NCBI GenBank assembly: GCA_018829845.1
Contig: JAHJTO010000041.1
Coordinates: forward strand, 1-34,844
Direction: 5' to 3'
DNA: 34,844 nt
Source of the DNA: Nanobdellota archaeon
GTDB taxonomy: Archaea; Nanobdellota; Nanobdellia; Pacearchaeales; JAHJTO01
Positions 7,949-34,440 of this stretch are shown here, piece by piece (positions within the stretch are counted from its first letter, which is position 1; each line of letters opens with the position of its first letter). A program made the position numbers and the translations under genes. Below the pieces are notes generated by a model. That model made no database searches. It saw only the letters and a list, made by a program, of their open reading frames with translations, and was not told where the DNA came from.

Positions 7949-8085
7949 GATTATAACAAAATTTTTTATTTTAATTTTATTATTTTTGACCATATTTCTG
8001 CTTGAAACTAGTTTCATACATCGGCTTAAAAGGGGTATATTCCAATAAAATTTATGCTTTTTGAAGAAAAAGTGTAAAATAAAAA

Positions 8086-14846: not shown

Positions 14847-15283
14847 AAAGAGAAAGTGCAGTGCATCTTCTGTTGTTTCTAGGAATAGTAATTTTGGATC
14901 TTGCAACAAAATATACCCTTAGCGAGGGGTGCCTTTGGAAATTCTGTGTGAGCAGGGCGTTCAATACAGGGGCATCTTTTGGAATATTTGATGGAATGAC
15001 CTCATTGTTTATCGTTGTTGCTGCAATGGTTTTGGTGGTTATGGCTTATCTTTACGAGAAATCAAATGCAAGAATAAAGCTGGCATTTGTGTTCATAGGG
15101 GCTGGAACCATTGGAAACCTCATAAATCGTGTTTTCTTAGGAGGAGTCATCGATCTATTCAGGATATTTAACTCATCATCATTCAACCTTGCAGATTTAA
15201 GCAACCTAATTGGTGGAATAATCCTTCTTTTTATTGTGTTTTTCGATGGTAAACAAGAGCAGAAGAAAACTTTTAAAGCCTGA
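14843..15283 (+). CDS. lspA: Lipoprotein signal peptidase (signal peptidase II)
   Basis: FNTGASFG, GAGTIGNLINRVFLGGVIDLF and FNLADLSN; both aspartates of the VxDF / NxAD pair are present. ATGA overlap with the DJ-1 gene. Confidence 0.8.
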   Translation: MKRESAVHLLLFLGIVILDLATKYTLSEGCLWKFCVSRAFNTGASFGIFDGMTSLFIVVAAMVLVVMAYLYEKSNARIKLAFVFIGAGTIGNLINRVFLGGVIDLFRIFNSSSFNLADLSNLIGGIILLFIVFFDGKQEQKKTFKA

Positions 15284-15345: not shown

Positions 15346-15387
15346 CATGCCGAAAAAACGGCAGAGGAGGGGGTTTTTTCTAGCATG
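15346..15387 (+). promoter_or_regulatory. Leader hairpin of the CATGCC/GCATG family at the gltX start
   Basis: CATGCC-GAAAAAAC-GGCAGAGGAGGGG-GTTTTTTC-TA-GCATG forms 8 bp plus 5 bp. GAGGAGG is in the 13-nt loop. The final ATG is nt 15385-15387. Confidence 0.6.
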
Positions 15388-20048: not shown

Positions 20049-20396
20049 TCAATATACTTTTTTGCCTTTGATATTGAAAATTCCATTCCCATTATGCATG
20101 AAAGGTTTTTTCTTGATTCTTAAAACCAATTCAATATCCTCATTTTTTATTTTGAATCCATTTTTCAATTCAATCAACTCATTGTTAACATAGCCAAATG
20201 GCGAGGGGTTGAGATAATTTATAAAAAGATTTTTTGATTTCAGACTGTCCTCTGATAGGATTGATAAGGGGTGGGTTCTTGTTGTGGCTTTATTTTTGCT
20301 TAAATCTGAAAGCATTGAATGAGAGAAATAAACCTCCTTCGCAGGAATCTTCTCAACAAGAGGTATTCCTGTCTTTTTTGGATCTGCCTTGAACAA
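20049..20396 (-). CDS. Hypothetical protein (115 aa)
   Basis: ORF only. Confidence 0.4.
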   Translation of the reverse strand: MFKADPKKTGIPLVEKIPAKEVYFSHSMLSDLSKNKATTRTHPLSILSEDSLKSKNLFINYLNPSPFGYVNNELIELKNGFKIKNEDIELVLRIKKKPFMHNGNGIFNIKGKKVY

Positions 20397-20523
20397 ACTT
20401 TTGTATGATAAATAAGGGAGAGAAATGCTTAAATAATTAACTCATGGAACATGGGAAAACAAAAGAATGATTAATTTAAGAGATAATGGGTAGATATTTA
20501 GAGGTATAGAAGATCAATGAGAA

Positions 20524-20868
20524 TCAGTAGACATATTTTTTCTTGTTTTCATCGGAAATTTGGCCTAGATCAAAGTTCACAAGCTCTTCCAAGTCTTTCT
20601 TTTTGACAGATCCAAACATAAGTATGAATCTATTCAGGCTTATTGGCCGGTTGAATCTTATCCAAGGAAGTCCTCCGCCACAGCAAGCTCCGCAGGCATG
20701 AGGATTATAGTCTATTTTTCCGCTTTCCACCAGTTTCTTGAAGCTTTTTCCCTCATAGCCTTTTATTCTGCCGTAGAAGCTTTCTAGGGGTTCATCAACA
20801 TCAAACTCAATGCTGCTTATGTAGGTCTTTCCTTCTTCGTCCTGAACTGTTTCGATATTATTGAACAT
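20524..20868 (-). CDS. Hypothetical protein (114 aa)
   Basis: ORF overlapping the upstream gene end by 11 nt. Contains HACGACCGGG. Confidence 0.45.
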   Translation of the reverse strand: MFNNIETVQDEEGKTYISSIEFDVDEPLESFYGRIKGYEGKSFKKLVESGKIDYNPHACGACCGGGLPWIRFNRPISLNRFILMFGSVKKKDLEELVNFDLGQISDENKKKYVY

Positions 20869-21346
20869 TTTTTCCCCTATTCATGCCGGCCTTTATCCCC
20901 ATGATTTGTATTCTTGCAACATCATATTTCCTTGCAATATCTTCAGTGGTTTTGCCTTTGGAGAGATCATTTCTAATTTTTTCTTTCTCTTTATCACTAA
21001 GTTCTCGCTTGTTATTGTAGGTCCCCATAGTGATGTGGGCCTTTATGGCTGAGATCTCCTGCAGCTTTGCCTTTGGAATAAGCTTTTTGATTGCCTTTGG
21101 AAGATATCCTTGCTTAAGCAAATGAAAAATATCTTCATGAGTATAACCATTGTGCTTATGTGCGTAGTCTTTTCCATTTCCCGCCTTTGGAACATATGGC
21201 TGTGGATTTGGATCCACCCCTATGAGCTTTTCAAGTTTATTCAACTTCCCTTCAATGCTCTCTTCCATAGCCCGATTGGAACTTACATAGCTGTTAAATT
21301 CTGATCTAAGGCTTTTGACATATTGGTATAATTTTTTATAGTTCAT
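20858..21346 (-). CDS. Hypothetical protein with two related HTH-like segments
   Basis: KLQEISAIKAHITMG and RIQIMGIKAGMNRG are internal repeats; also KGKTTEDIARKYDV. 4-nt overlap with the upstream 851-aa gene. Confidence 0.5.
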   Translation of the reverse strand: MNYKKLYQYVKSLRSEFNSYVSSNRAMEESIEGKLNKLEKLIGVDPNPQPYVPKAGNGKDYAHKHNGYTHEDIFHLLKQGYLPKAIKKLIPKAKLQEISAIKAHITMGTYNNKRELSDKEKEKIRNDLSKGKTTEDIARKYDVARIQIMGIKAGMNRGKNVQ

Positions 21347-23898
21347 TCTTTCCTCCCAAGCTTAAAGCTCATGAGTCTCATGGGCGTTTCTCTGCTAACA
21401 TATGGCTTGTTCAATTTTGTTTGTATTGAATATTTGTTTTCATCGGCAAGATTGCTTACTATCTTTGTTAATATCTCTCCTTGATCTTCTGTACCGTACT
21501 GTTCTAGGAATCCATTGGAATTTTCTTCCGCAAGAGACATTCCGCCATTTCTAACAATTCCCTGGGCTCTTGGAGATTCATCAAGAGTAACAAAAAGAAC
21601 TGCATCATTTGCAATCTGGTTGTTTTTGAATAATGATCTTACAGTTTCTAAATTGTTTTTGCTGAGATAGCCATTGTAATCAAGATTTATGAAATCAAAT
21701 TTAAGATTTTTGTAGGCAGTACAATTGAGCGCATTATCGATTTGTCCGGAATAAAGATTAAGCCCGTTGAAAATTTCTCCGCCCTTTATTTTCTGATTTG
21801 AGGTGATAATACTTTTCATGGCATTATATGCTCTTGAATCTTTTTCAGCTATTAGGCTCTTCTTTGGATCTATCTTGAGTAATTGGGATAGGAAAATGTA
21901 GCTTCCAAAATGTGGTCCCTCTAGACCCAGATAATTCAATTTTTCTGGCCGTGGCAGACTATCTATTGCTTCTCCAAGCATCTTTTCCCTCATTTCATCC
22001 TTTGGATAATCTTTGAAGTCATTCATTTTCTTGTTTTTTATGCTTTCAACAGTATTGTAGCTTCTCTTTATTTCTGAAGAAGTGATTATTCCGAGCTCCT
22101 TCAAATCCCTTCCCACTGTGTAGATTTCCATTTTCAATCTCTTTGCTATGTCCACTCCGCTAAGTCCTCCAAATGCAAGCTCCTCTTCCAAGCTCCTTCT
22201 TACTTCTTTTCCTTTCTGGCTTCTCATCATGCTTTTGAAGAATCCATTGAAGGTCTTCCAGTAGTTCTTCCATGAATCCCCTATGTTCTTGCTACTCCAT
22301 GATCTTGCTGTTGGAACAGTTCCATGCTTATGGTAATGTGCCTTGAGATACTCAACACCCAAAGAGACAATCTCCTTTTTGGACAGATTACTAAATAAGT
22401 TGTTCTCCTGAAGATTCTCAGCGTCAGATCTGGAAAAAGTTATTCCCCTTAATTTGGCTAAGTAGTCTAGACCCTCCTGGGGAAGATAGACGCGTTTTCT
22501 TTTTCCCATTGGCTCTGTAATTATCATGTCCCCCAAAGACTGATCTACATTCTTGGAGTGGATGAATGTACACAGAGCCACCTTGTCCATTCCAAGAAGG
22601 GCTCCTGCTTCCTTCATAGTATATCTCTTTCTCTTGACTTCTTCAGAGGGTTTGTCTTCAGGAGTTGTATTTTGATCATTTGATTTCTGTTTTATGGTCT
22701 TTACACAACCCTTAAGATAATTGACTGCTTCTTCAGATATGAGCGGGGCCCCATCTTTCCATATCAGGAGTTTCTTAAAATTTTCATCATTGGATTCATG
22801 GACCCTTCTCCATATAGTAGAATAGTGTGTACCCAAAAGTTTTGCAGTTTCTTTGACACTGTACTCTTTCTTCCCAATTGGCTCTTTCTTTACAATTGGC
22901 CCCGACTCAATCTTCTCTTGAGATGTAATTAAAGGAGAATCATATGATTCCTGTGGAATATTGACAGATTGCAAAACTTCCTCAGGAGTTTCAGCATTCA
23001 TTTCAGCATAGGCAAGATATATTCTTGGTTCGAGATGAATATCCGATTTTCTAATTGATTCTTCAAGGTTGCTCTTTAACCTTGCAACGGTTTCCCCATT
23101 GAATGTGGCTTTTATGGAATATTTCATAAGAGCATTTTCCAATTGAGTTGCCTCAAAACCCTCCAGAGATTGATTTAAGATTTTTTGCATGGATCCATTT
23201 TCCATAGAGCAAGAATTTAGTGGGAAGATAACATCGATTTTATTTTCTGAGCCGTTGGAAACTTCATTTATTAAAATTGGGAATGATAAAGGATATTTTG
23301 TCCTATCTGAAAATCCTTTTGATTTTTGATAAGCTTCTGCTATCTCTGTCCTGAGCTTGATTTCTGTTTCTTTTATTGATTCGTCCAGTGCAGCATTTCT
23401 CTTTCTTTCTTTTCTTATTGCTTTTGATTTATATCCTTCTAGAATTTCCTTCTTTTTTTCAACTTTCTCCCAATTAACAGTATCGCCTTCATTGATGGAG
23501 GCATAGTCTTTAAACCATTTGTCAAAACATGAAGAAAGTGCAAATGACTTGGCCTCAAATGCTCCATTTACTGCCTTAAGATAGGTCTTAGAAGTCTCAT
23601 TCTTGTCTTTTGATAACATCAATTCTGCATCCATGGTAGTGACTATTCCAGTCAATCTTCCCTCAAGCCCGGATATGCATTCCTTGTCATGTTTGGAAAG
23701 AAGTTTCTCCTTCACAGAATCAAGTTCTGAGTTTATTTTTTCCATGTAGGCCTTTTTGGAATTTTCAACAAGTTCTCCAAGAGCTTTTACGTCCCCCTCA
23801 TATTTTTTATCAAGGGTTGCCTTTTCTTTCTCAAACTCTTCAATCTGCTTCTTGCTCTCTTCCCATACCTGCCTTGTTTTTGTTTCTAGTTCTTCCAT
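21343..23898 (-). CDS. Large multi-domain protein: N-terminal coiled-coil, at least three HTH modules, and a C-terminal Rossmann methyltransferase-like region
   Basis: HTH modules: YSVKETAKLLGTHYSTIWRRVHES, YTMKEAGALLGMDKVALCTFIHS and SGVDIAKRLKMEIYTVGRDLKELGI. The C-terminus has YLGLEGPHFG, LIAEKD, FDFINLDYNGY and AVLFVTLDE spaced like MTase motifs I, II, IV and V. Start set at the second Met (23898), which sits in a leader hairpin with AGGAG. Confidence 0.6.
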   Translation of the reverse strand: MEELETKTRQVWEESKKQIEEFEKEKATLDKKYEGDVKALGELVENSKKAYMEKINSELDSVKEKLLSKHDKECISGLEGRLTGIVTTMDAELMLSKDKNETSKTYLKAVNGAFEAKSFALSSCFDKWFKDYASINEGDTVNWEKVEKKKEILEGYKSKAIRKERKRNAALDESIKETEIKLRTEIAEAYQKSKGFSDRTKYPLSFPILINEVSNGSENKIDVIFPLNSCSMENGSMQKILNQSLEGFEATQLENALMKYSIKATFNGETVARLKSNLEESIRKSDIHLEPRIYLAYAEMNAETPEEVLQSVNIPQESYDSPLITSQEKIESGPIVKKEPIGKKEYSVKETAKLLGTHYSTIWRRVHESNDENFKKLLIWKDGAPLISEEAVNYLKGCVKTIKQKSNDQNTTPEDKPSEEVKRKRYTMKEAGALLGMDKVALCTFIHSKNVDQSLGDMIITEPMGKRKRVYLPQEGLDYLAKLRGITFSRSDAENLQENNLFSNLSKKEIVSLGVEYLKAHYHKHGTVPTARSWSSKNIGDSWKNYWKTFNGFFKSMMRSQKGKEVRRSLEEELAFGGLSGVDIAKRLKMEIYTVGRDLKELGIITSSEIKRSYNTVESIKNKKMNDFKDYPKDEMREKMLGEAIDSLPRPEKLNYLGLEGPHFGSYIFLSQLLKIDPKKSLIAEKDSRAYNAMKSIITSNQKIKGGEIFNGLNLYSGQIDNALNCTAYKNLKFDFINLDYNGYLSKNNLETVRSLFKNNQIANDAVLFVTLDESPRAQGIVRNGGMSLAEENSNGFLEQYGTEDQGEILTKIVSNLADENKYSIQTKLNKPYVSRETPMRLMSFKLGRKE

Positions 23899-23958
23899 GC
23901 TTAGAAATTCTCCTGCCAGAATTTCTGGCATGCAAAAAATCTTTGATTTTTTATCATG
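23896..23958 (-). promoter_or_regulatory. Two tandem family hairpins forming the leader of the 851-aa gene
   Basis: Sense strand: CATGAT-AAAAAATC-AAA-GATTTTTT-GCATG, overlapping CATGCC-AGAAATTC-TGGCAGGA-GAATTTCT-AA-GCATG. The final ATG is 23898-23896. Confidence 0.6.
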
Positions 23959-23987
23959 TTGCTTTTCCTATAGTATTGTATGCCTTC

Positions 23988-24031
23988 GGTGATTATATTC
24001 CCTTTTCATAAGATGTATATACATGCCTATG
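23988..24031 (-). promoter_or_regulatory. Shared island promoter module (copy upstream of the 851-aa gene operon)
   Basis: 35 of 44 positions are identical (hand alignment) to 26644-26687. Sense strand: CATAGGCATGTATATACATCTTATGAAAAGGGAATATAATCACC, with two TATA-like boxes. Confidence 0.55.
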
Positions 24032-24049
24032 TCGGCCTCAGATGCCTGT

Positions 24050-24409
24050 CTATTTTTTCTCCTCCTTGGGCTCAAATGTCACCCTTGCGGATTTTGTATG
24101 AATGCCATTGCAATAGGGGTTCATGGAAACTTCCCCGAATCTGCCAAGAAGATCATTGGACATGTTCAGCAGTTGTATTGTTGTTCCATCGAATGAACCA
24201 TCCACCATTTCAGCAAAAGGATCATTGACTTTTAATTCAAGTGTGGACTCTGCCTTTTTCTTTCCAAATTCCGAACCCTCTATTAATCTGACAACGGTCA
24301 TGCACAGCTCCCCATATTCAGGATTCTTATATTTCCCAGAACTATACATTTCTTTGGCAGTCTTAACCAGGTCCTTCAGTTCGTTTAGGTATTTTTTATC
24401 GTTTGTCAT
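24050..24409 (-). CDS. Hypothetical protein (119 aa)
   Basis: ORF with 4-nt overlap to the upstream gene. Confidence 0.5.
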   Translation of the reverse strand: MTNDKKYLNELKDLVKTAKEMYSSGKYKNPEYGELCMTVVRLIEGSEFGKKKAESTLELKVNDPFAEMVDGSFDGTTIQLLNMSNDLLGRFGEVSMNPYCNGIHTKSARVTFEPKEEKK

Positions 24410-25191
24410 TTTTTCTCCTTCGCCTTGTTCAAAACATTTGATAATTTGCAGTATTCACTGTGGAAATTATCAAGCTCTTCCGAAGTCAGTTTGACTTCAT
24501 CTTTTTCATTAAGACGGCTTACTGTTTTATTCATCTTTTCCAGTATTGACAGAGCCTCAGCTTCGTCTTTCTTATCTGAAAATAATTCTTTAACCAATCC
24601 TTGCGCTTTTTCCACAAGGTTTTCGTATTTGGGCAACTGGCTCAGATAGTCAGAAAACTTCTTTTTGTCTTTCTGCATTACCAGATTCAATCCCTGGGTG
24701 TCTATATCTACGGGCAGGTAGAGCATCATGATTTCATTGGCTGTTTGAGAAGGATTCAAAACTTGGAATCCTTTTTTTGCCCAATATTCTCTTTGTTTAG
24801 GTTTATGAAAATTAGATTCGACATTCACATTTACCTTCTCGACATTCTGTCCATACTTTTTTGCAAGATAGTTTACCAGGGTGTTGGCAAAATTCTCTGC
24901 TATTTCCTTAGGGACTGGACCGAAGTCTCTGGAGTCTTTGTTGACTGTCAGGATATTGTCTTCCAAAATGAAGTAGCCCCCTCCAACCACTCTGCTCCTT
25001 GGAACCCTATTGGCATCTGCGATTTTCTTGTGGAATTCGTAGATATTCTTGTTCGCACAGTAAAATTCAAGCTGATTCGGCTTTTCAGTGGTGCAGACTA
25101 TGAATTTACTTTGTAATGTGGGCTCTCCAGTCATGTTTACGAGTATTCCTTCAAGATTATTGGTCTGTTTTTTGTTTTGTTCTATTTTCAT
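24406..25191 (-). CDS. Hypothetical protein (about 262 aa)
   Basis: Start moved to the Met (MKIEQNKKQ) just after the lipoprotein stop and preceded by GGGGG. No domain recognised. Confidence 0.5.
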   Translation of the reverse strand: MKIEQNKKQTNNLEGILVNMTGEPTLQSKFIVCTTEKPNQLEFYCANKNIYEFHKKIADANRVPRSRVVGGGYFILEDNILTVNKDSRDFGPVPKEIAENFANTLVNYLAKKYGQNVEKVNVNVESNFHKPKQREYWAKKGFQVLNPSQTANEIMMLYLPVDIDTQGLNLVMQKDKKKFSDYLSQLPKYENLVEKAQGLVKELFSDKKDEAEALSILEKMNKTVSRLNEKDEVKLTSEELDNFHSEYCKLSNVLNKAKEKK

Positions 25192-25192
25192 T

Positions 25193-25453
25193 TTATTTTC
25201 CCCCGTCGTATGGCTGCTCTTTTGTAAGGCCGCTATTCTCAGAATCAGTTCCTTCATTGAAGGAGTTTTGAAATGCCCTCAATTCTGGATCCTCCTGTAT
25301 TAATGTTGAAATTTCTGAGTCTGCTGGAGCATAGGCTATTTGCTTCTGCTGTGTCTTTTGTGTCTTCTGTTGAATTCCAGCACACCCCCCTAGAAAAATG
25401 GCTGCAGCTAGTGCAAGGCCATAAATTTTATTTGCTTTAGTTTTGTTTTTCAT
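25193..25453 (-). CDS. Small predicted lipoprotein
   Basis: MKNKTKANKIYGLALAAAIFLGGCAG is a signal peptide followed by the lipobox L-G-G-C. Confidence 0.6.
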   Translation of the reverse strand: MKNKTKANKIYGLALAAAIFLGGCAGIQQKTQKTQQKQIAYAPADSEISTLIQEDPELRAFQNSFNEGTDSENSGLTKEQPYDGGK

Positions 25454-26121
25454 TTTTCAACCTCCAAAGCTTCCTCTAGATAGGGAGTTACGAGAATTGG
25501 CTGCTCAAGCTTTTTGTTCAATTTTCCAAGAGATCTTAGAATCATTGATCCGTCTCTTGACATTATGGCTTCCAAAAAAGAATCATTTTGAAGCAAGGCC
25601 TTTACAGTTTTCGGATTTTTAGGAATGTCTAGAGAATATCCTGAATCTTGGGGAGAACTTCCAGTATATTTACTATTTCCTCCGTAGAATATGCTGTATC
25701 TCGCAACTAGAAGGCCAGATCCCTTTAATTCTTGAACATTATGTTCAGAAGGTTCATTGCATCCCGAAATATCAAGATCTGCGAATACCTTGCAGGGAAG
25801 AACGGTCTTCTCAAGAGTACTAAGCATTACCACATTTCCTTTCTTGGTATTTACTCTGTCTTGACCATGGAGGTTTTTAGGATCAAATCCATATTTCTTC
25901 TGCTGAATTTTAGCTGCTTCAAGAGGTTTCATTCCCTTGGGCATTTCTTCAGGAAATAGAGTATAGGCTTCCTCAAGGGTCTTCAGAGTATCTGTAAGAT
26001 AGGGCGTCGATATTGAGACAACGTATATCTTTTTTTCAGAAAATTTATTGGATATTTTAAAAAAGTTATTCCTATATTTCTTGAATTCATTCAACCCTTC
26101 ACATTCTTTACAGTCTTTCAT
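25450..26121 (-). CDS. Hypothetical protein (223 aa)
   Basis: ORF with 4-nt overlaps on both sides. Confidence 0.5.
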   Translation of the reverse strand: MKDCKECEGLNEFKKYRNNFFKISNKFSEKKIYVVSISTPYLTDTLKTLEEAYTLFPEEMPKGMKPLEAAKIQQKKYGFDPKNLHGQDRVNTKKGNVVMLSTLEKTVLPCKVFADLDISGCNEPSEHNVQELKGSGLLVARYSIFYGGNSKYTGSSPQDSGYSLDIPKNPKTVKALLQNDSFLEAIMSRDGSMILRSLGKLNKKLEQPILVTPYLEEALEVEK

Positions 26122-26615
26122 TTTTTGCTCTCCTTCTTGATGTCCTTTAGGATTTTCTCAAGAGTGTAATTTCCGCCGCATTCGCAGCTCATTATCTCAG
26201 CATTTTTGTTTCCAATCTCGCGGATCAATGCCTTCTTTTCGTAGGAATTGCATTTACACATGACATAGGTTATCTTTTCTGCGGGAATATCCTTTGTCAT
26301 TTCTATGGCCCCTTCAGCTCCATGGGCTCCTACGTATAGGTAGACATGATTAAGCTGCGGCAGAATTGGCTTTATTCCTTCCAAAAGATAGCTTAGCGTG
26401 CTTTTTCTGATTCTCTCTGCCATTGCAGAATTTTCGCTACCTGCCACGGCTCTTTCAGATCGATGGCCATTCTGCATAAGGAGCACTTTCTTTCCAGGAT
26501 AGTTCGTCCATCCGTTCTCATACTGCTGCGGATTACCTATGCAGTTGTATGTAATTATGGCTATCTGCTCCACTGCACGGTCTATTGACTTTTTGATTTG
26601 TTTTTTGTTTGTCAT
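26118..26615 (-). CDS. Hypothetical protein (165 aa)
   Basis: ORF with CAGGAG upstream; first gene after the promoter module. Contains CKC..CEC cysteines. Confidence 0.5.
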   Translation of the reverse strand: MTNKKQIKKSIDRAVEQIAIITYNCIGNPQQYENGWTNYPGKKVLLMQNGHRSERAVAGSENSAMAERIRKSTLSYLLEGIKPILPQLNHVYLYVGAHGAEGAIEMTKDIPAEKITYVMCKCNSYEKKALIREIGNKNAEIMSCECGGNYTLEKILKDIKKESKK

Positions 26616-26643
26616 TTTATTCTCCTGTAATATACATGTGTCT

Positions 26644-26687
26644 GGAAATTATATTCCCTCTTCATAGGGAATATATACTTCCCTATG
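26644..26687 (-). promoter_or_regulatory. Shared island promoter module (copy upstream of the 26615 operon), containing a 9-bp perfect inverted repeat around a TATA box
   Basis: CATAGGGAA-TATATAC-TTCCCTATG (26663-26687) plus GGGAATATAATTTCC on the sense strand. Homologous to 23988-24031 and 31849-31870. Confidence 0.55.
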
Positions 26688-27141
26688 CTGCCCCTCCTGA
26701 GTATGCAATGAATTGCAGAGCATGCTTTATCGGGCGATAGTCTTTTCTCAAAAGCCCGTACAGCTTTTCCTTTATTTCATCCAAAAGGGCAGGCTTGCTT
26801 TGATAATCAGCATTGAATACCTGCTCTCTTTCTTTTTTTACAACCCTTCCAGTTTTATCTCTCTGAGTTATACCGTAGTCACTGTGCCAAACCTGTCCAC
26901 TGTCATCAACAATGAAGTGAACCATGTTATTCCAAGGAAGATGATTCTTTCTTTCCACTATCACCTGGCAGGTTTTTGGGATTTTGTAGGCCGGATTTCC
27001 CCCGCATACTTTGTATGACACTACGATCTTGTCGTTTGGAGCCCCATCTATGCAAGCCTCCTTCAAGGTTGTCCAATGGGAATTTCCCAGATTGAACAAT
27101 TCCTTTATGGTTATTTTTTCGAGGTTTATTTTGTGTCCCAT
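26683..27141 (-). CDS. Hypothetical protein (152 aa)
   Basis: ORF only. Confidence 0.5.
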   Translation of the reverse strand: MGHKINLEKITIKELFNLGNSHWTTLKEACIDGAPNDKIVVSYKVCGGNPAYKIPKTCQVIVERKNHLPWNNMVHFIVDDSGQVWHSDYGITQRDKTGRVVKKEREQVFNADYQSKPALLDEIKEKLYGLLRKDYRPIKHALQFIAYSGGAA

Positions 27142-27214
27142 TTTGTTTTCCTTTAATCACTTTGAAGTGATGCCATAATACTGTATAGAATAGAAATATA
27201 TAAGGATTATTCAT

Positions 27215-27267
27215 AAGATATATATACACGTATAAGTATATAAGAAAGAAAGATTTATATATATCTT
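27215..27267. promoter_or_regulatory. 12-bp perfect inverted repeat in the divergent intergenic region. Candidate operator and/or paired TATA boxes.
   Basis: AAGATATATATA (27215-27226) and TATATATATCTT (27256-27267). A further TTATATAA lies about 25-30 nt upstream of the 27305 ATG. Confidence 0.4.
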
Positions 27268-27304
27268 AGAGCATTATATAAGTAATAAGCTACAATAGGA
27301 TAAA

Positions 27305-28246
27305 ATGAAACGGAAGATAATCAAGCTAGGAACGGCCACGCTCGTAGCGAGCCTTCCCGCGAAGTGGATAAGGGAGTTCGGATTGAAGCAGGGAGACTAT
27401 CTCGAAGTCAATGAGAAGAAGGGAGATCTTGTTCTGAGCACTGAGAAAGAAATGGCAAAGGACGAGACGACTATAGATATAACCAAGTTCAACACCAAAC
27501 TTGCCCTATACAGACTGGCAGGAGCATATGTAGCTGGCTACAATAAAATAGAGATATTACATGAGCAACATATCAAAGAGTACACTACTGGAAAAAATAG
27601 AAAGACTTCTGAGTTCATACAAAGCATGATTGGGAAATTCATAGGAATTGAGATAATAGAACAGTCTGAAAAAAAGACTGTGCTGAAAGATCTGAGTGGA
27701 GTCTCTGAGACTGATGCAGACAATATCCTAAGGAGAGCATTTCTGCTGACAAAATGGCTGGCTCCAGAATGCCTCGAGGCCATAAAGAAAAGAAACAAGG
27801 AGGATTTGGGGGAGATAGAAAATAAGGCTAGGAATGTTTACAAATTTCTTTATTTTTACAGAAGACTTCTTAATAAGAAAGGATACAAAGATTTCAGCAA
27901 AACGCCGATAATGTATCACAATACTTATTTAATAGGAGATATTGCAAGAATACTCCATTCATTGGCACATGAAACTGCAGAATTCAAGAAAGAATATTCA
28001 AAGTCTGCGCTGGATATATTCGCAAAGGTTGTTGTTTTGATAGATAAATTGGATAATCTATTTTTCGACTTTAGCAATGAAAAGGTGTTGCATATAATGA
28101 ATGAAAGAGAAGCAATAATCAAAAAAATAAAAGAGGATAGAAATAAATTCTCAAAGGAAGATGGATATCTTTATGCCAATATGGATTTCGTTGTAAAATC
28201 AGTATCGCATCTTGAAGAGGGAAGATTCCAGCTGGAGACTAATTAA
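27305..28246 (+). CDS. AbrB/SpoVT-domain plus PhoU-like regulator
   Basis: MKRKIIKLGTATLVASLPAKWIREFGLKQGDYLEVNEKKGDLVL is an AbrB swapped-hairpin domain. It is followed by a helical PhoU-like region, an architecture common in archaea. Confidence 0.75.
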   Translation: MKRKIIKLGTATLVASLPAKWIREFGLKQGDYLEVNEKKGDLVLSTEKEMAKDETTIDITKFNTKLALYRLAGAYVAGYNKIEILHEQHIKEYTTGKNRKTSEFIQSMIGKFIGIEIIEQSEKKTVLKDLSGVSETDADNILRRAFLLTKWLAPECLEAIKKRNKEDLGEIENKARNVYKFLYFYRRLLNKKGYKDFSKTPIMYHNTYLIGDIARILHSLAHETAEFKKEYSKSALDIFAKVVVLIDKLDNLFFDFSNEKVLHIMNEREAIIKKIKEDRNKFSKEDGYLYANMDFVVKSVSHLEEGRFQLETN

Positions 28247-28252
28247 TTTTAA

Positions 28253-29107
28253 CTATTTCTTTTCGAGAATTTGAGACAACCGGGTGAATTTCTTTATTTT
28301 TACGGCATAGTTCAACTTTTCAGAATCACTGGGTTCATAATTAAAGGCGATGACTTTTATTCCCAGATTATGGGCTCCATCATCTTCATCAACATCATGT
28401 CCTAGGAAAACGACATCTTCTTTTTTGAGATTATATTTCTTCAGAGCATGTTCGTAGAATCTGGGATCTGGCTTGCAGTATCCAAGATCCTTTGAGGTTA
28501 TAACATCCTTGATTCCAGTCTTGATGCCCATGCTTTCCATCCATTGCCTTGCATCTTCCCCAGTCCGATGGCCATCTGACAAAACTATGATATCTATCCC
28601 TTTTTTATGAAGCTCCTCCAGGGTTTCCAAAACTCCTTCAAAGGGAACATTTCTTATTTTCTTTTTTCTTTCCCCAAGCCAGCCCATATAACCTGGATAA
28701 TATGACGGAATCTTCAATTCCTTGAAAGTATCCTCGTAACTCATTTCCCTGGTGTATCCGGGTTTAACCATGGCCAGGTCTCTCTTGGCTGAATAAACTG
28801 CCCTGAAATGCTCAGGAGTTATAGAATACTTGAATGAATCATTGGAGAGATCATTCTCTGCACTGCTCTTGTATTCAAGCTTGCCTTTTGAAGGATAATC
28901 TAGCTTTCCGAGAGTTTTTTGTCTGTCTTCCGTGTCTAATATTGAATTTATGTCCTTTTTTCTCGCCATAAGTCCCTTTTCTTCAAGATATGATCTGAAT
29001 GCCCCCCTGAGATCTGAATCATCAAAGAGGATGTTGCCTGCGTCTGTGAGTATTGCCTTCACATATATCTTTGGCTGCTTATCGTGTTTATTATTCTGTT
29101 TCTCCAT
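28253..29107 (-). CDS. HAD-superfamily hydrolase-like protein
   Basis: KAILTDAGNILFDD (motif I-like), IIVLSDGHR, and FLGHDVDEDDGAHNLGIKVIAF (motif IV-like). Start set at the Met (MEKQNN) adjacent to the upstream stop. Confidence 0.6.
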   Translation of the reverse strand: MEKQNNKHDKQPKIYVKAILTDAGNILFDDSDLRGAFRSYLEEKGLMARKKDINSILDTEDRQKTLGKLDYPSKGKLEYKSSAENDLSNDSFKYSITPEHFRAVYSAKRDLAMVKPGYTREMSYEDTFKELKIPSYYPGYMGWLGERKKKIRNVPFEGVLETLEELHKKGIDIIVLSDGHRTGEDARQWMESMGIKTGIKDVITSKDLGYCKPDPRFYEHALKKYNLKKEDVVFLGHDVDEDDGAHNLGIKVIAFNYEPSDSEKLNYAVKIKKFTRLSQILEKK

Positions 29108-29108
29108 A

Positions 29109-29804
29109 TTATATCGTGTATTTCTCTCCGTTTTCATAGCTGAGTTCGAGCTTGATTTCTGGGATCATCGCCATCTCATCCCGATTTATGAGTTTGGTTA
29201 TCGCCTTTCCGGAGGGGATCGCGACTATGTTCACTAATTCTCTCTCTTCCCTTGGAGTCTTGTTCTTCTCTCCGAGCAGATTTTTTGTAAAATCGTTCAG
29301 CTGTCCATCAGGAAATCCCTGAGAAAGGCATGCGGTTGATGGCATGAGCACAGACCTGTTTGTCAAAAGAATGCATACCGTTTCAAGATCATGCAAGGAC
29401 ATCTTCGCAATATTCGGCTTATATGGTAGATTTAATTTTAAGGTATACAGGTTTATCAAAGAATCGTAAGCATTTCTAATCTGTGGCACTCCGTGATCTA
29501 ATTCCTTTTCGGCAATGCCCATTTTTTCAGCCTTCTCGAAATATTCTCTCAGATAGCCTTTTTCAAGCACTCCTCTGAACAAGGTTTCCTGATTTATCAT
29601 GTCCTCGATTCTCTCTTTTTGCAGTTTTTCCCTCAATCCTTCCATGAAACTTGCATTTAGGGATTCTCTTGCAACTTCCAACTCCTTGTAATCTGCCAAT
29701 CCAGATTCTTGCTCGGGAGAGATCCTTCCCCCTCTAAGAGACTCTGCTCCTTGGAATGCCGAATCTTCACTGTCCTCTGGGTTTTGATTTTCCATTTTTG
29801 ACAT
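29109..29804 (-). CDS. Hypothetical protein sharing an N-terminal motif with the upstream gene
   Basis: GAESLRGGRISPEQESGLADYKELEVARESL aligns with GAETLREKRIAAEKDSGLLDRRALDLAEDAL of ORF 29767-30678 (14 of 31 identical by hand). Confidence 0.5.
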   Translation of the reverse strand: MSKMENQNPEDSEDSAFQGAESLRGGRISPEQESGLADYKELEVARESLNASFMEGLREKLQKERIEDMINQETLFRGVLEKGYLREYFEKAEKMGIAEKELDHGVPQIRNAYDSLINLYTLKLNLPYKPNIAKMSLHDLETVCILLTNRSVLMPSTACLSQGFPDGQLNDFTKNLLGEKNKTPREERELVNIVAIPSGKAITKLINRDEMAMIPEIKLELSYENGEKYTI

Positions 29805-30678
29805 TTATTTTGGATGAGTATTGCACGCACGGAGGAAGTGATATGTCTACATATTCTTTCCCAAATTTAGTTTCGGCAGGATTTTTACCTTCAGGATTTG
29901 TCACGTAAATATTTCCAGAGTCAGCAACTGATTTCAGCTCTGTCAGGAATTCAGTAGTAGTCTTATAGATGTCCGAATAAAACGCTTTTATCGCTTTTTC
30001 ATGTCCCTTCAAAGGAAAACAGACCTTTGATGTCAGACCATTCACTCCGTCTTTCAATGCAAAAAGGTCATGATATTCTATAGATTTATTTTTTGCAGTG
30101 GTAAGAACCTTGTCGCTTAGGTTTGTGACTTTTGTGGAAATAATCTTCCCAGTAGAATCAGACAGAATTCTCACCAGGTAAGGCACTCTTGAAAAGCCCA
30201 TCATGCCTGTTGACTCATAATTCAATTTCAAATCGAAATCTATCTTTTGTGTTTTGACATCCAAGGATTTGCCATTTTCCAATAAAGCACCATCAACTTT
30301 GATGGAATAATCCTTCACTGGGGAGTGCTTTGAGTCGATAGAATCCTTAAGATCTCCCTCCAACTGAGTGTAATTTGCAAGATCACGGTTGCTTAAAGAG
30401 TTGTATTTCTTTATGACATTATTTCTTTGGAATATTGCTGTCAGGCACATTGCGAACATTCCAGCCGCAAGTCCCCTATTTACCCATTTCAGAATATTGT
30501 ATTTCTTGCTTATCTTGGCTTTTTCTTCCTGTTCTACTCTAAGAGCATCCTCTGCAAGGTCTAATGCTCTACGATCAAGAAGCCCAGAGTCCTTCTCAGC
30601 AGCAATTCTCTTCTCCCTCAAAGTCTCCGCTCCATCCATCGCGATTCTTTCAATCTCTGCTATGTCCCCGTTTTCCAT
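29767..30678 (-). CDS. Single-pass membrane protein: shared N-terminal motif, one TM helix, ~200-aa outside domain
   Basis: TM segment GLAAGMFAMCLTAIF. The N-terminal motif is paralogous to ORF 29109-29804. Confidence 0.5.
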   Translation of the reverse strand: MENGDIAEIERIAMDGAETLREKRIAAEKDSGLLDRRALDLAEDALRVEQEEKAKISKKYNILKWVNRGLAAGMFAMCLTAIFQRNNVIKKYNSLSNRDLANYTQLEGDLKDSIDSKHSPVKDYSIKVDGALLENGKSLDVKTQKIDFDLKLNYESTGMMGFSRVPYLVRILSDSTGKIISTKVTNLSDKVLTTAKNKSIEYHDLFALKDGVNGLTSKVCFPLKGHEKAIKAFYSDIYKTTTEFLTELKSVADSGNIYVTNPEGKNPAETKFGKEYVDISLPPCVQYSSKINVKNGKSKPRGQ

Positions 30679-30679
30679 T

Positions 30680-31837
30680 TTATTGTTTATAGGCCTCCTT
30701 GCAAGTCTTCAGGCCGAGAGAGGCAAATGCCTTCATGTTTTTCTGTCCATTGAGTATTGTATTTTGTGCCAGTTTAACATCAATTCCTGGCCTTCCTTTG
30801 CTGAGAATCCCTTGGTTAATCTCGACGTGCCTTCTCTCAATATCTGCATAGATCCCATACTGATGGGCTTTTGCCAAGGTGTAAATATGCTTGAATTCTT
30901 CCAGGGAACCTACAGGCATTTTATTCGCAGCCAGAGCATTGTAGAAGTTTTTCACAAGCTCTCCTTCTTTGTCTGCATTCTTTGGGTTGTCAAATCTCAA
31001 CCCCATGGCGATTCGGGTTATGTCTGTCTGGGGGGCTCCGAGCATTGCCCATTCCCAGTCTATGAGAGATACAATATCTTGTCCTTTCAAATGCATGTTT
31101 CCGAGGTGAAGGTCATTGTGTATCAGACCTTTGCCATAGTTATTCAATGATTTAGTATACTGAGTAAGGGATTCTACAACCCCTTGAACATAATCTTTTT
31201 CTGCCAATTCTGGGATCTTCCATTTAGAATGATCGCTAGCATAATTGTTTGTAGAGAGCAGCTTTATTTCGTCAGGACTTAGGCTGATGGAATGTATGTC
31301 AGATACAGTTTTTGTTATTTTATCCAAAATAAGCTTCATCTCAGCAGGATTGTTGGAGATCTTCTGAATATGATTTTCTACGGAGATCTCAGAGGGACTG
31401 AAAAGCTCATAGGCAATAACACGGCCGTTATTGAATATGCATTTAGGGGTGGCAGGATAACTCAGGCTTCCTCTAACTATCTCAGGCACATAGAGCTCCA
31501 CAGCGTGCTTGCTATCATCAAGGCTTCTTCTCTTTACAAAGCAGATTAGCGGAACGCTAGGCAATGATTCGAATGTCATTTTTGCAAATTTACATCTAGG
31601 GTGGTTCTTTGATATGTTTTCTCCATTTTCTTTGTCTTCTTCAACCTTATAATGGCCATTTCTTATGTCCTCCTTGAGGGGTCCGACTTGATCGTCAGAG
31701 ATTACCTTTTCCCGAAGCAGCCTTGAGATATCCATAGCTATTAAGGCAGCCTTGAAACCTGGGAAATCGGGACCAATGAATTCCTCGAGTGGAATGTCTA
31801 TGCCATATTCTCTTAATGTATTGTTTTTATTAACCAT
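30680..31837 (-). CDS. Aminoglycoside/choline-kinase-like phosphotransferase (APH family fold)
   Basis: Catalytic loop GLIHNDLHLGNMHL (HxDxxxxN) followed by SLIDWEWA (the D-W-E metal-binding motif typical of this family). Confidence 0.7.
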   Translation of the reverse strand: MVNKNNTLREYGIDIPLEEFIGPDFPGFKAALIAMDISRLLREKVISDDQVGPLKEDIRNGHYKVEEDKENGENISKNHPRCKFAKMTFESLPSVPLICFVKRRSLDDSKHAVELYVPEIVRGSLSYPATPKCIFNNGRVIAYELFSPSEISVENHIQKISNNPAEMKLILDKITKTVSDIHSISLSPDEIKLLSTNNYASDHSKWKIPELAEKDYVQGVVESLTQYTKSLNNYGKGLIHNDLHLGNMHLKGQDIVSLIDWEWAMLGAPQTDITRIAMGLRFDNPKNADKEGELVKNFYNALAANKMPVGSLEEFKHIYTLAKAHQYGIYADIERRHVEINQGILSKGRPGIDVKLAQNTILNGQKNMKAFASLGLKTCKEAYKQ

Positions 31838-31848
31838 TTTTCACTTGT

Positions 31849-31870
31849 TTCATAGGGAAGTATATACTCC
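31849..31870 (-). promoter_or_regulatory. Shared island promoter core (copy upstream of the kinase operon)
   Basis: Sense strand GGAGTATATACTTCCCTATGAA. TATATA is followed by 23 nt and then the ATG at 31837, compatible with a very short or absent leader. Confidence 0.5.
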
Positions 31871-32018
31871 TGACTGGAGCATAAACTAACCTGACATTCA
31901 TAGTATTTTCACACTTAAATACCTTTCGATTTGTAACTACTTTAGAGTAATATAATAGAATAAATCAAGAGAATAGGATATTTTGGCCAATAATGTTTAT
32001 ATATGATAATGAAGGGAA

Positions 32019-33056
32019 ATGGAAATGGCAAGACATTCCCCTGGATACTGGGCTGGAGAAAACATAGAGAAGGAATACTATAAAAAGAAAGAGGAAAAGG
32101 GAAGAATCCCCCGGGTAAGAGAATGGCTCATGGGAGTTCGTGCAATAAATAATGGAAAATATCTTGATGGAATAAATAATTACAAAGCATTTCTTAAACA
32201 TCTGAATGAAAGGACAGACTATCTTTGCATTGATCCGATATTCCCAAAAGAAGCATTCGAAGCGGCATATTGTGAATGTAAGGAGGAATTGGGCTGGGTG
32301 AAACCTTTGAGAAAAGAATTTGAGTACAGATATCCTGAAGTTATGAAAGAGATAAGGAGGGGAGGGTTTCTAAAGGAAGTGAGAAGTTACAAACAATTTA
32401 TCGAGCATATGGGTGAATCTGCAAATCATGCGCCAAATTATTGGACGGGCCATCCCCAAAGAATAAGAGAATCTTACTATGCGGATAAAAAAAAGTATGG
32501 ATTTGTTACACAAAAAGGGTTTGCAAAAAGGCATCCAGGAGAATGGGATGCAATATTTAGCAGGAGATATAATAAAAATATTCACAACTGGAACCAATTC
32601 AAGCATTCTTTGGGAGAAAGAGTTTGGAAAAGAGCACCAAATGGATCAATTACACTTGAGAGATGCACAAAAAAATATTATGAATGTAAAAAGAAGATCA
32701 AAAAGAAAGAGGGAAGAGCACCATTTTACAAAGAATTTGAAGGGATGTGTGGGGGATCAGCCAAATGGATAGAAAAAAATATTGGATGGAATAATTTTCT
32801 GAGATCACAGGGAGAAAAAATAAATAAGGAATGCAATAGGGATGATGAAAAACTAAAAAAAGGAAAAGATGTATGGACAAAAGAAGATTTCATAGACGCA
32901 TACACTTTTCTGGAGAGGGAAAGGGGGAGAAGACCCTCAAGGAATTATTTTATTAATTTTTATGGTCCAGAATCACTTAAACAGATTAAAAAGGGAAAAA
33001 TTGAGGGAATAAAAAACTGGAATGATCTGGAAAGAATTGTTAATGGAATGAATTAA
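32019..33056 (+). CDS. Protein built from about five tandem ~60-aa repeats resembling homing-endonuclease-associated repeats
   Basis: The repeat ends recur: ..NNYKAFLKHLNE, ..SYKQFIEHMGE, ..NWNQFKHSLGE, ..GWNNFLRSQGE, ..NWNDLERIVNG. Each is preceded by W/Y..E....Y....K...GR.P. Confidence 0.6.
   Translation: MEMARHSPGYWAGENIEKEYYKKKEEKGRIPRVREWLMGVRAINNGKYLDGINNYKAFLKHLNERTDYLCIDPIFPKEAFEAAYCECKEELGWVKPLRKEFEYRYPEVMKEIRRGGFLKEVRSYKQFIEHMGESANHAPNYWTGHPQRIRESYYADKKKYGFVTQKGFAKRHPGEWDAIFSRRYNKNIHNWNQFKHSLGERVWKRAPNGSITLERCTKKYYECKKKIKKKEGRAPFYKEFEGMCGGSAKWIEKNIGWNNFLRSQGEKINKECNRDDEKLKKGKDVWTKEDFIDAYTFLERERGRRPSRNYFINFYGPESLKQIKKGKIEGIKNWNDLERIVNGMN
32853..32926 (+). repeat. 74-nt tract identical to 34234-34307
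   Basis: CTAAAAAAAGGAAAAGATGTATGGACAAAAGAAGATTTCATAGACGCATACACTTTTCTGGAGAGGGAAAGGGG is present in both paralogs, while flanking sequence is clearly diverged. Confidence 0.85.
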
Positions 33057-33069
33057 ATGGAAATTTAGC

Positions 33070-34440
33070 ATGGTAGATCTTGAAAAGCATATTGATGAAA
33101 TAGTAAGATTGTATGTAGTTAAAAAGAAGGGGTGCGCACTTATAGGAAAAGGGTATGGGGCGAAGAGGTATGCTATAGGGAAGATTCTTAGAAATAGGGG
33201 AATTGAATTGAAAAAGAGGGGAAAGTATTCTGAAATGAATCGCTTAACTGACTGGAAAAAAGAGTATGAACTGCATCCTGAATGGAAGGGGAAGAATTCA
33301 TCGCAGATAGCATATGAGACTGAATCAGGACTACTTAATTTTTATAGGGCATTTAGAAAATGGGTTCAAAAAAACATTAAAGATGAAAATCTGAGGAAAA
33401 GATCTTCTTGTGAGGTTTTAGGATTGAGGGAGAATTTGACTCAGGAAAGAATTGACCAGCGTTTTTTTGATCTTTATAAGAGTCTTGACAGGATTCCAAC
33501 AGTAAGGGAAGTGGGGGCTGCCTGTGGGGGTGTGATGACGGCAATATTCAGGGGAGAATATTTCAAGAGCATAACAACCTATCTAGGCTATCTCAGGCAC
33601 CATGGACTTTATGATCCATCTGAGGAAAAGGATCTTACCCGGGAGGAAATGAAGGCTGAATTTTATAAATGCAAGAAAAAACTGGGGAGGGATCCCCTCA
33701 GAAAGGAGATATTCCACAGCTGTCCTGGATTTGAAAGGGCGCTTAAGAATGAAAGATATTCTAGAGGAGTAAATAACTATCGGAAGTTTATGATAAGTAT
33801 TGGTGAAAAAGCAAATCATGTTGAGAGGAACTACTGGAAGGGACATCCTAGGAGAATAATCAGGGCATACTGGACAGAGAAAAAATTGAATAAGAATTTG
33901 AAGAGAAAAGATTTCGCAGCCAGATGTTCCGGAGCATGGGATGTCATACAAAACGGAGAATTCAAAAAAGGAATTACAACATGGAATGGATTCAAAAGAT
34001 ATCTTGGGGAGGAGATAAAATATCCCCATGATCGAACATGGTCTCCTGAAAAGGTACTGAAGGCATACTATGATCAGAAGAAAGAGTTAGGAAGAAATCC
34101 AACCTGTAAAGAATTTATAGCCAGAAACGGAGGAGCAATAAACACTATAAGGAGAAGAACCTATGATCCCTCTATCTCAACATATAATGGATTCCTAATC
34201 TCCCTTGGGGAAAAGGTGATGCGAAAGATATCTCTAAAAAAAGGAAAAGATGTATGGACAAAAGAAGATTTCATAGACGCATACACTTTTCTGGAGAGGG
34301 AAAGGGGAAGAAAACCTCCAAGAGATATGTTCATGAATTATTATGGTCAAGAACCTTTCAAGCAGATGAAAAAAAGAAAAATTGATGGAGTAAGAAACTG
34401 GGGTGATCTGGAAAGAATTGTTAATAGCACTCAAAGATAA
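33070..34440 (+). CDS. Paralog of the preceding gene: N-terminal HTH-like module plus about six of the same ~60-aa repeats
   Basis: Repeat ends: TTYLGYLRHHGL, NNYRKFMISIGE, TTWNGFKRYLGE, STYNGFLISLGE, RNWGDLERIVNS. The N-terminus GCALIGKGYGAKRYAIGKILRNRGIELKKRG resembles the modules of ORF 19314-20012. Confidence 0.6.
   Translation: MVDLEKHIDEIVRLYVVKKKGCALIGKGYGAKRYAIGKILRNRGIELKKRGKYSEMNRLTDWKKEYELHPEWKGKNSSQIAYETESGLLNFYRAFRKWVQKNIKDENLRKRSSCEVLGLRENLTQERIDQRFFDLYKSLDRIPTVREVGAACGGVMTAIFRGEYFKSITTYLGYLRHHGLYDPSEEKDLTREEMKAEFYKCKKKLGRDPLRKEIFHSCPGFERALKNERYSRGVNNYRKFMISIGEKANHVERNYWKGHPRRIIRAYWTEKKLNKNLKRKDFAARCSGAWDVIQNGEFKKGITTWNGFKRYLGEEIKYPHDRTWSPEKVLKAYYDQKKELGRNPTCKEFIARNGGAINTIRRRTYDPSISTYNGFLISLGEKVMRKISLKKGKDVWTKEDFIDAYTFLERERGRKPPRDMFMNYYGQEPFKQMKKRKIDGVRNWGDLERIVNSTQR
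34234..34307 (+). repeat. 74-nt tract identical to 32853-32926
   Basis: See the partner copy. A second identical 22-mer, TGATCTGGAAAGAATTGTTAAT, occurs at 33023-33044 and 34404-34425. Confidence 0.85.

Follow-up and report, generated by a model that had tools for sequence, protein, structure and literature searches.

We analyzed a 34,844 nucleotide (nt) stretch of DNA from a Nanobdellota archaeon (below called the window), in which the genes between positions 20049 and 31870 form several operons headed by copies of one promoter-like module with the core GTATATA-N2-6-CYTATGAA. This region is probably a lineage-specific signalling and regulatory cluster of the chromosome, each unit of which is headed by the composite TATA/operator module and would be switched together with the others. 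The module is repeated, specific to the cluster, uniformly oriented and conserved at orthologous positions, and the cluster is syntenic in related genomes.

The core pattern was found four times in the window (31849-31867, 27210-27227, 26661-26678 and 24005-24022), always on the minus strand and at the head of an operon, and 100 shuffles yielded no match. Repeat finding grouped the segments 23992-24031, 26648-26687 (83% identity) and 27197-27236 (68%) as one family. An earlier note on this DNA, made by reading the sequence, had named three copies, all of which were recovered; the fourth one, at 27210-27227, had been missed. Copy A (GGAGTATATACTTCCCTATGAA, 31849-31870, minus strand) has its TATA-like core approximately 27 nt before the ATG of the kinase gene. 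Copy B (GTGTATATATATCTTATGAA with CCTTATATATT, 27195-27236, minus strand) is located in the intergenic region between the divergent genes for an AbrB-PhoU regulator and a protein of 152 amino acids (aa). Copy C (26648-26687, minus strand) consists of a 9+7+9 inverted repeat, CATAGGGAA-GTATATA-TTCCCTATG, followed by GGGAATATAAT; the inverted repeat is perfect, and its left arm includes the stop codon of the 152-aa gene. Copy D (CATAGGCATGTATATACATCTTATGAAAAGGGAATATAAT, 23992-24031, minus strand) is found upstream of the gene for an 851-aa protein. The box GGGAATATAAT, which had been described as a second box of the module, has exact matches at 26648-26658 and 23992-24002 only. The part common to all copies is GTATATAY-N2-3-CYTATGAA, oriented toward the downstream gene in every case; copies of the C and D types have in addition a mirror half-site, CATAGG, on the upstream side and a further box, GGAATATAAT (GGAATATAA), on the downstream side.

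The module recurs between genes, at corresponding positions, in five related genomes from metagenomes (loci L003, L077, L078, L080 and L081), the proteins of which are only 48-85% identical to those of the window. In L003 (proteins 57-85% identical) the sequence CATAGGCATGTATATACATCTTATGAA is found unchanged upstream of the 855-aa orthologue of the 851-aa protein, an orthologue with 57% identity, and in L077 the divergent region next to the AbrB-PhoU gene contains a B-type copy with 21 identical nt (GTATATATATCTTATGAATAA). L078 has a C-type copy and a degenerate B-type copy. The L080 contig, which came from a pattern scan of metagenomes, has a D-type copy directly upstream of a homologue of the 162-aa helix-turn-helix (HTH) protein described below, with the upstream stop codon in the left arm. 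Copy D is almost identical to its counterparts in L003 and L080. For L081, an nhmmer model trained without this locus detected four copies, of the A, B, C and D types (E 5e-6 to 4e-4). One precedes the APH-like gene, one occupies the divergent region, one follows the first gene of the divergent operon, and one stands ahead of an AAA/ThiF sub-operon. The L081 copy at 9303 has perfect arms (TTCATAAG-gca-GTATATAC-aa-CTTATGAA). At one position of the arms, copy C has G-C, L081 and L078 have A-T, and the D-type copies have G-T.

The same nhmmer model gave no match below E 0.05 outside its training set in 1.06 Mb of other loci, and the module is absent from the housekeeping promoters of the window and from 10 kb of additional flank. 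A metagenome scan with the strict C/D-type pattern returned two contigs, the window contig not among them, and carries little information on the genome-wide copy number. The generic genes of the window have TTTATA or TTTAAA boxes approximately 25-32 nt before their ATG, the spacing seen in leaderless transcripts of archaea, and these boxes are not followed by CYTATGAA. The module is thus not the generic TATA box; the earlier note had named a generic sequence of TATA box and transcription factor B recognition element (BRE), upstream of most genes, as fatal to its proposal. Since the same motif stands at several promoters more often than expected by chance and is conserved at orthologous operon heads, the co-regulated set of units proposed there appears well supported.

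In the reading we prefer, GTATATAY would act as a TATA box and recruit the TATA-binding protein (TBP) and transcription factor B (TFB), while the conserved flanking bases would be bound by a DNA-binding protein encoded in the cluster, probably a dimer. Such binding would gate the access of TBP/TFB or of RNA polymerase, and all units would switch together. The kinase and the HAD-like protein of the cluster, together with receiver-like fusions in related loci, suggest an input linked to phosphorylation. Copy A and the A-type copy of L081 are located 25-30 nt before the ATG of an APH-like kinase gene, a spacing that reads as leaderless promoter geometry. In the other copies the distance to the ATG is larger (50-125 nt), and Shine-Dalgarno-like sequences follow. 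Directly upstream of GTATATAY, where a purine-rich BRE would set the direction of transcription, the bases vary between copies (AGGGAA, AGGCAT, CAGGA and TACGT). As binder of the module the AbrB-PhoU protein is a possible candidate, somewhat short of a probable one; a role of the 162-aa or the 851-aa HTH protein appears less likely, and the case that no dedicated factor binds is less likely still.

Several points weigh against this reading. Promoter function of the module, repression through it and the identity of its binder are features that we infer from the sequence. The distance between module and start codon varies, from 30 to approximately 125 nt, and a second TATA-like box follows downstream in copies B, C and D; GTATATAY could therefore be an upstream operator instead of a TATA box. 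The full dyad is not universal, because copies A and B have no left half-site. The module is missing at loci with a distant AbrB-PhoU protein (L071, L073 and L075), which weakens its link to this regulator. In addition, the sequence scanned from the source genome amounts to approximately 51 kb (a 51.5-kb ENA assembly of the contig), beyond which further copies are possible, and the related genomes are non-independent samples.

The module could instead be a strong core promoter typical of the lineage, composed of TATA box, proximal element and initiator, that was copied together with gene cassettes and is kept by the basal machinery alone, without a dedicated regulator. The TATA-like core at leaderless distance in the A-type copies would agree with this, as would the constant orientation toward the downstream gene and the fact that the gene behind equivalent copies differs (851-aa protein, 162-aa protein or AAA/ThiF). 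However, housekeeping promoters on the same contigs do not contain CYTATGAA, and the arms keep their complementarity by paired changes. In the established architecture of archaeal promoters, basal factors are not known to need eight conserved bases between TATA box and start site or an upstream mirror half-site, which also counts against a core promoter. Altogether, we regard a core promoter of this kind as rather unlikely.

Alternatively, the C- and D-type copies might act as RNA, forming an intercistronic hairpin for processing, stability or attenuation, maybe with a leader peptide starting at the ATG within CYTATGAA. This ATG (31853, 27214, 26665 and 24009 in the window; also present in L003, L077, L078 and L080) opens short open reading frames (ORFs), the products of which are MKREYNFQTHVYYRRIK for copy C, MKREYNHRRHTIL for copy D, MKQEYNSKLRSIIN for L003 and MKSEYNFHSPYNLGEIK for L080. 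The shared start MK(R/Q/S)EYN of these products argues for such a function, as does the fact that the ORFs of copy C and L080 both have 17 codons and a stop overlapping the ATG of the next gene (ATGA). The predicted hairpins (z -5.3 for copy C, -3.1 to -3.8 for copy D and L003), the alternation of G-C, A-T or G-U at one stem position and the upstream stop codon within the left arm in copy C and L080 point in the same direction. However, copies A, B and L077 fold no better than shuffled sequences (z -0.3 to +0.7) and keep the core nonetheless, no U-tract follows the hairpin, and the window contains no Rfam match. The short ORFs are preceded neither by a Shine-Dalgarno sequence nor by a TATA box at leaderless distance, and a comparison of copy D with L003 shows higher conservation in the non-coding left part than in the peptide. 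An RNA element is thus an improbable explanation, and the short ORFs could be leader peptides or a by-product of the conserved DNA.

The region had been described before as an ORFan island, and it might be a mobile island, provirus or defence island that brought its own repeated promoters. Consistent with this, many of its genes have no Pfam family, HNH-repeat proteins adjoin, and the cluster is absent beside Elp3 in more distant DPANN genomes: the Elp3 neighbourhoods of 64 other genomes contained no relatives of its genes. Relatives were sought by a full phmmer search against 1.84 billion representative proteins, for which six proteins of the region were joined as one concatenated query and matches were assigned by query coordinates. 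All proteins of the region are singletons when clustered at 90% identity; the genes nevertheless have relatives (approximately 200 representative clusters for the 223-aa protein), and the description as ORFans does not hold. The region is chromosomal DNA of a Woesearchaeota/Nanoarchaeota-like DPANN archaeon. The sequences closest to the Elp3 of the window, 55-63% identical, come from metagenome-assembled genomes of Nanoarchaeota, Woesearchaeota and Pacearchaeota. The chromosomal location follows from the flanking housekeeping genes (Elp3 and GluRS on one side, diphthamide-synthesis genes and gyrB/gyrA on the other), from a GC content equal to that of the flanks, and from a tRNA scan and an Rfam search of the window that gave no tRNA and no Rfam family. 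A repeat search detected no flanking direct repeats around the region, PHROGs and PADLOC scans of its proteins gave nothing meaningful, and the fold of the 223-aa protein had no viral match in BFVD. In agreement with the earlier judgement that this is not a classical mobile element or defence island, no integrase, transposase, capsid, viral or known defence genes, no boundary by a tRNA or direct repeats and no deviant composition were found, and related genomes show the cluster in synteny with housekeeping genes. A mobile origin is therefore very improbable. Equally hard to credit is the idea that the inverted repeats are core sites of a site-specific recombinase (dif- or attC-like) marking exchangeable cassettes: the 9-7-9 architecture of copy C, which we take to resemble such a core site, and the different cargo behind equivalent copies in different genomes would fit, but there is no integrase, transposase or Xer gene in the window or the related loci, most copies have imperfect arms, the conserved stretch reaches further on the gene side than on the other, and four sites in direct orientation within 8 kb would not be stable under an active recombinase.

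The regulator gene within the cluster (27305-28246, plus strand) encodes a protein of 313 aa, the N-terminus of which matches PF04014 (AbrB/MazE; 3.9e-6, 27.1 bits against a cut-off of 24.7 bits). A PhoU domain was not detected directly in the window protein by Pfam, NCBIfam and PDB profile searches. The protein aligns end to end with P0221 (E 2e-34), which contains PF01895 (PhoU; 29.1 bits against a cut-off of 23.5 bits) at the matching residues. Altogether, 58 full-length homologues were found; five of them carry PF01895 and several are named 'phosphate uptake regulator'. The designation as an AbrB-PhoU protein was therefore right, because the alignment extends over the full length of homologues with a PhoU domain above threshold. 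SpoVT/AbrB-PhoU proteins are a known, uncharacterised class of archaeal transcription factors (PMC7325993, PMC6316755).

The gene order around this regulator is conserved. The window contains an operon kinase-303-231-HAD, the convergent AbrB-PhoU gene and then the divergent operon of small proteins. L077 has APH-232-HAD, an AbrB-PhoU protein with 57% identity and the divergent genes 122, 277 (receiver-like plus 165-family domain) and 263; L078 has APH-204-HAD-261, an AbrB-PhoU protein with 56% identity and the divergent genes 87, 67, 137 and 299. In L081 a Pkinase gene, an APH-like gene, 378, 222 and HAD are found together with an AbrB-PhoU protein of 48% identity and a divergent operon including a 223-family gene. 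L071 and L073 combine a Pkinase and an AbrB-PhoU gene with divergent operons containing 223- and 165-family genes. In L075 no kinase gene is convergent with the regulator gene, and the divergent operon includes a 223-family gene and, inside it, the gene for an APH-like kinase. Taken together, kinase (with or without HAD), AbrB-PhoU and divergent operon occur jointly in L071, L073, L077, L078 and L081, with a variant in L075, and the wiring of kinase, HAD and regulator is the same in the window, L077, L078 and L081. The check for a conserved gene order proposed in the earlier note thus shows the regulator tied to the cluster by synteny in six further genomes.

A second palindrome, YACT-N4-AGTR (motif 2), was found in both promoters that flank the AbrB-PhoU gene. 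Its sequence in the window is ATCACT-N4-AGTGAT. At the divergent operon, CACTTCAAAGTGA (27157-27169, palindrome 27158-27169, minus strand) lies 16-28 nt before the ATG of the 152-aa gene. Upstream of the kinase operon, a conserved promoter box (31913-31949, minus strand) aligned with those of L077, L078 and L075 combines the palindrome TACTCTAAAGTA (31938-31949) with, behind it, AGTAGTTACAAATCGAAAGGTATTTAAGT, a sequence resembling a BRE/TATA element (31913-31941), clearer than that of the module. Motif 2 occurs 12 times in 193 kb of AbrB-PhoU loci; 10 of the 12 sites are intergenic, and nine belong to promoters of either the kinase operon or the divergent one. The background, taken from 750 kb of control loci with low GC content, was 0.021 per kb. 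The motif is also present where the AbrB-PhoU protein is only 24-31% identical (L071, L073 and L075), and across loci it tracks the AbrB-PhoU protein more faithfully than the module does. Thus, motif 2 is more likely than the module to be the AbrB-PhoU site, and the proposal of the earlier note that the AbrB-PhoU protein is the factor controlling the module has lost ground to it. Going one step further, the module and YACT-N4-AGTR might together be the first operator set and regulon described for the widespread archaeal AbrB-PhoU factors, in DPANN archaea placed at the output of the kinase/HAD-like pair and switching on a variable cargo that includes the 223-aa and 165-aa families; we propose this tentatively and hold it to be doubtful.

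The ORF map of the cluster comprises 14 minus-strand ORFs from 31837 to 20049 and one plus-strand gene at 27305-28246, which confirms the arrangement described before. Four-nt overlaps between genes, reported there as well, are exact at four junctions (26118/26121, 25450/25453, 24406/24409 and 21343/21346); the remaining junctions are 1-nt gaps or overlaps of 11-38 nt. It also proved correct that most genes have no recognisable family: the only Pfam matches in the cluster are APH (4.2e-10), HAD (7e-18) and AbrB/MazE (3.9e-6).

The first operon, like all others on the minus strand, starts with the gene for a kinase of the APH/choline-kinase fold (30680-31837, 385 aa), which has orthologues in L077, L078 and L081. 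The call of a kinase-like component is borne out by the APH fold and by intact catalytic motifs, the loop HNDLHLGN (HxDxxxxN) and IDWEW with the metal-binding Asp; the kinases of L077, L078 and L075 have retained the corresponding loop and (I/V)DW motifs. The next two genes encode proteins without a family, one of 303 aa (29767-30678) with a moderately hydrophobic segment at approximately residues 68-84 and one relative of 34% identity (P0017), the other of 231 aa (29109-29804). The N-terminal segments of both proteins, approximately 46-50 residues, are paralogous (43% identity), and the two genes overlap by 38 nt. The last gene of the operon encodes a HAD-fold hydrolase (28253-29137) of 294 aa, or 284 aa from an alternative start, which matches Pfam HAD_2 (7e-18). 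It had been called HAD phosphatase-like, and the fold is confirmed; the three orthologues (window, L077 and L078) have DAGN, DGGG and DGGN as motif I, so that the nucleophile is kept and the Asp at position +2, the general acid/base of the phosphatase motif DxDx(T/V), is replaced by Gly. Phosphatase chemistry is therefore uncertain.

In the divergent operon, the first gene encodes the 152-aa protein (26683-27141), the C-terminus of which is similar to part of P0139. The second gene encodes the 165-aa family protein (26118-26615) with conserved TYN, YVG, CxC and CxCGG motifs, for which phmmer detected approximately 20 relatives. A single protein of 227 aa, P0139, aligns to the C-terminus of the 152-aa protein and to the entire 165-aa protein, which suggests that the products of these two neighbours cooperate. 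A receiver-like domain precedes the 165-aa family domain in fusion proteins of L073 and L077; its Pfam Response_reg scores of 24.9 bits (L073) and 17.5 bits (L077) remained below the cut-off of 30.2 bits, and the 165-aa protein of the window itself has no receiver-like domain.

The following gene encodes the 223-aa family protein (25450-26121), which has approximately 200 relatives with E < 1e-10 (phmmer) and, in an alignment of 26 sequences, the near-invariant motif ARYSIFYG...YTG..P...GYSLDIPK. A confident fold was predicted for this family (predicted local distance difference test, pLDDT, 90; predicted template modelling score, pTM, 0.85), and a fold search with the model gave no match at E <= 0.001 in PDB or BFVD, template modelling scores being <= 0.33. 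PDB profile searches with the AbrB-PhoU, 165-aa and 223-aa families gave no credible match. The cluster thus appears to hold at least two uncharacterised protein families (223-aa and 165-aa), and the predicted fold of the 223-aa family has no structural relative in the libraries searched. In L074 (8001-9397) a 223-family gene adjoins the gene for a TrmB-family regulator, not for an AbrB-PhoU protein.

Further downstream are an 86-aa ORF (25193-25453) with one weakly hydrophobic N-terminal segment, the gene for a 261-aa protein (24406-25191) with relatives in L005 (two copies) and L078, and the gene for a 119-aa family protein (24050-24409), for which approximately six representative relatives were found as well as short ones in L071 and L003. 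The longest ORF of the second of these comprises 283 aa and is annotated as 261 aa (24406-25191) by other annotators. The idea that the cluster acts on the cell envelope or in host interaction is not supported: a Kyte-Doolittle scan (19-residue window, cut-off 1.6) passed one weak segment, in the 86-aa protein, and no evidence for lipoproteins was found in the cluster.

Behind copy D follows the gene for the 851-aa multidomain protein (21343-23898) with a coiled coil, weak HTH signals and a C-terminal Rossmann-like domain containing NLDYNG. The ORF itself comprises 862 aa; the start is most likely Met12 (23898), because both homologues and the NCBI call begin there. The protein search returned two homologues only, and a scan of GTDB genomes detected no relatives. 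An AlphaFold model computed from three sequences had a pLDDT of 46, and its best fold matches, Trm1, TYW2 and Trm5b, were non-significant (E 0.025-0.4); no Pfam, NCBIfam or PDB sequence or profile match was obtained for the C-terminus. The motif NLDYNG resembles DLDPFG of Trm1. The label methyltransferase-like, used for this protein before, is not upheld by sub-significant matches of a low-confidence model, which are at most a hint at such an identity. Coupled to this gene is that of the 162-aa protein with a C-terminal HTH (20858-21346; PHROG HTH 1.3e-4), homologues of which are found in L003 (80% identity), L005 and L080. The searches detected no relatives of the next ORF (114 aa, 20524-20868). 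At the end lies a fragment of a CrtC/AttH-type lipocalin gene (20049-20396), which matches residues 37-151 of an L005 protein (9256-10020; at least 255 aa, ending at the contig edge; PF07143 5e-27); it is probably a pseudogene remnant outside the operon.

Several other features were observed in the window and the related loci. The NifU gene of the window (3177-4802) contains a LAGLIDADG intein, and gyrB and gyrA just outside the window (L006, 13373-19675) also carry inteins; the gyrases of the related locus L071 are intein-free. Lgt (prolipoprotein diacylglyceryl transferase, 4806-5534) and signal peptidase II (14843-15283) represent genes of the bacterial lipoprotein pathway in a DPANN contig. 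An archaeal-type GluRS/GlnRS (15385-17382) has an N-terminal extension of approximately 200 residues outside any Pfam family. Next to the cluster, two tandem paralogous HNH_repeat proteins (32019-33056 and 33070-34440) are 40% identical, and their genes share a 192-nt segment at the 3' end with 86% DNA identity (32853-33044 and 34234-34425); a relative is found in the same neighbourhood of L071. Beside gyrA of L071 (13190-13540) there are several head-to-tail units of approximately 55-60 nt (ggatatttcttgattaaacttcttgctaaacagtgaattaagaaaagaagttt). In L081, similar segments (3420-3660 and 7830-7996) are located upstream of genes in an AAA plus ThiF/E1-like operon; both contain gatgtggct ... tttatgtaaaat ... 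aagggaaaatg, and they might represent small ORFs that are paralogous, or leaders.

How DPANN archaea regulate their genes has hardly been studied, and the locus offers two directly testable cis-elements. Further handles are the same kinase/HAD-like/regulator wiring in four loci and the uncharacterised families. The case also illustrates that genes which look like an island of ORFans in a small genome of an archaeon can form a system that is conserved and inherited vertically. If this were the first AbrB-PhoU regulon, its cargo would include a new-fold family of approximately 200 clusters and a new Cys-rich output domain of receiver-like proteins.

Among the closest known arrangements is the regulon of Thermococcales built on the glycolytic motif TATCAC-N5-GTGATA (Thermococcales glycolytic motif, TGM), which is located next to BRE/TATA and bound by the TrmB-family regulators Tgr/TrmBL1. 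In both cases a short dyad motif is found at the promoters of several operons, and its position relative to the TATA box would set the effect; the window form of motif 2, ATCACT-N4-AGTGAT, is similar in sequence to the TrmB-type palindrome. In contrast to the TGM regulon, the candidate regulator here is an AbrB-PhoU or HTH protein and not TrmB, the main module includes a TATA-like box and is 19-40 nt long, and the putative targets belong to uncharacterised families and not to sugar metabolism. Promoters of T7-class phages likewise are a conserved repeated sequence, of approximately 23 bp, and there, too, long near-identical promoters head several units on the same strand; unlike these, the cluster contains no dedicated RNA polymerase or sigma-like gene, shows chromosomal synteny, and no viral families were found in it.

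Euryarchaeal AbrB-PhoU proteins, such as TK2245 of Thermococcus kodakarensis (PMC7325993) and the PhoU family of Pyrococcus furiosus (PMC6316755), are annotated as chromosome-associated proteins or predicted transcription factors (PMC7325993, PMC6316755). They have the same two-domain architecture of AbrB and PhoU; the DPANN members differ in being tied to a kinase/HAD operon, for which no such report was found in the literature, and no operator, regulon or target set was found there for this architecture. Systems of this type, regulons with a common operator, are known; new are the cis-element, its link to DPANN AbrB-PhoU/kinase clusters and the protein families, of which no description was found in the literature searched. 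Like the 'dark matter' islands of archaeal genomes (Makarova et al., 2019; PMC6393860), the region is a contiguous unannotated block in a DPANN genome that can partly be read from its context. Unlike in these islands, a regulator, a kinase operon and a cis-element are conserved across genomes, and the cluster is therefore a defined system and not an assortment of genes.

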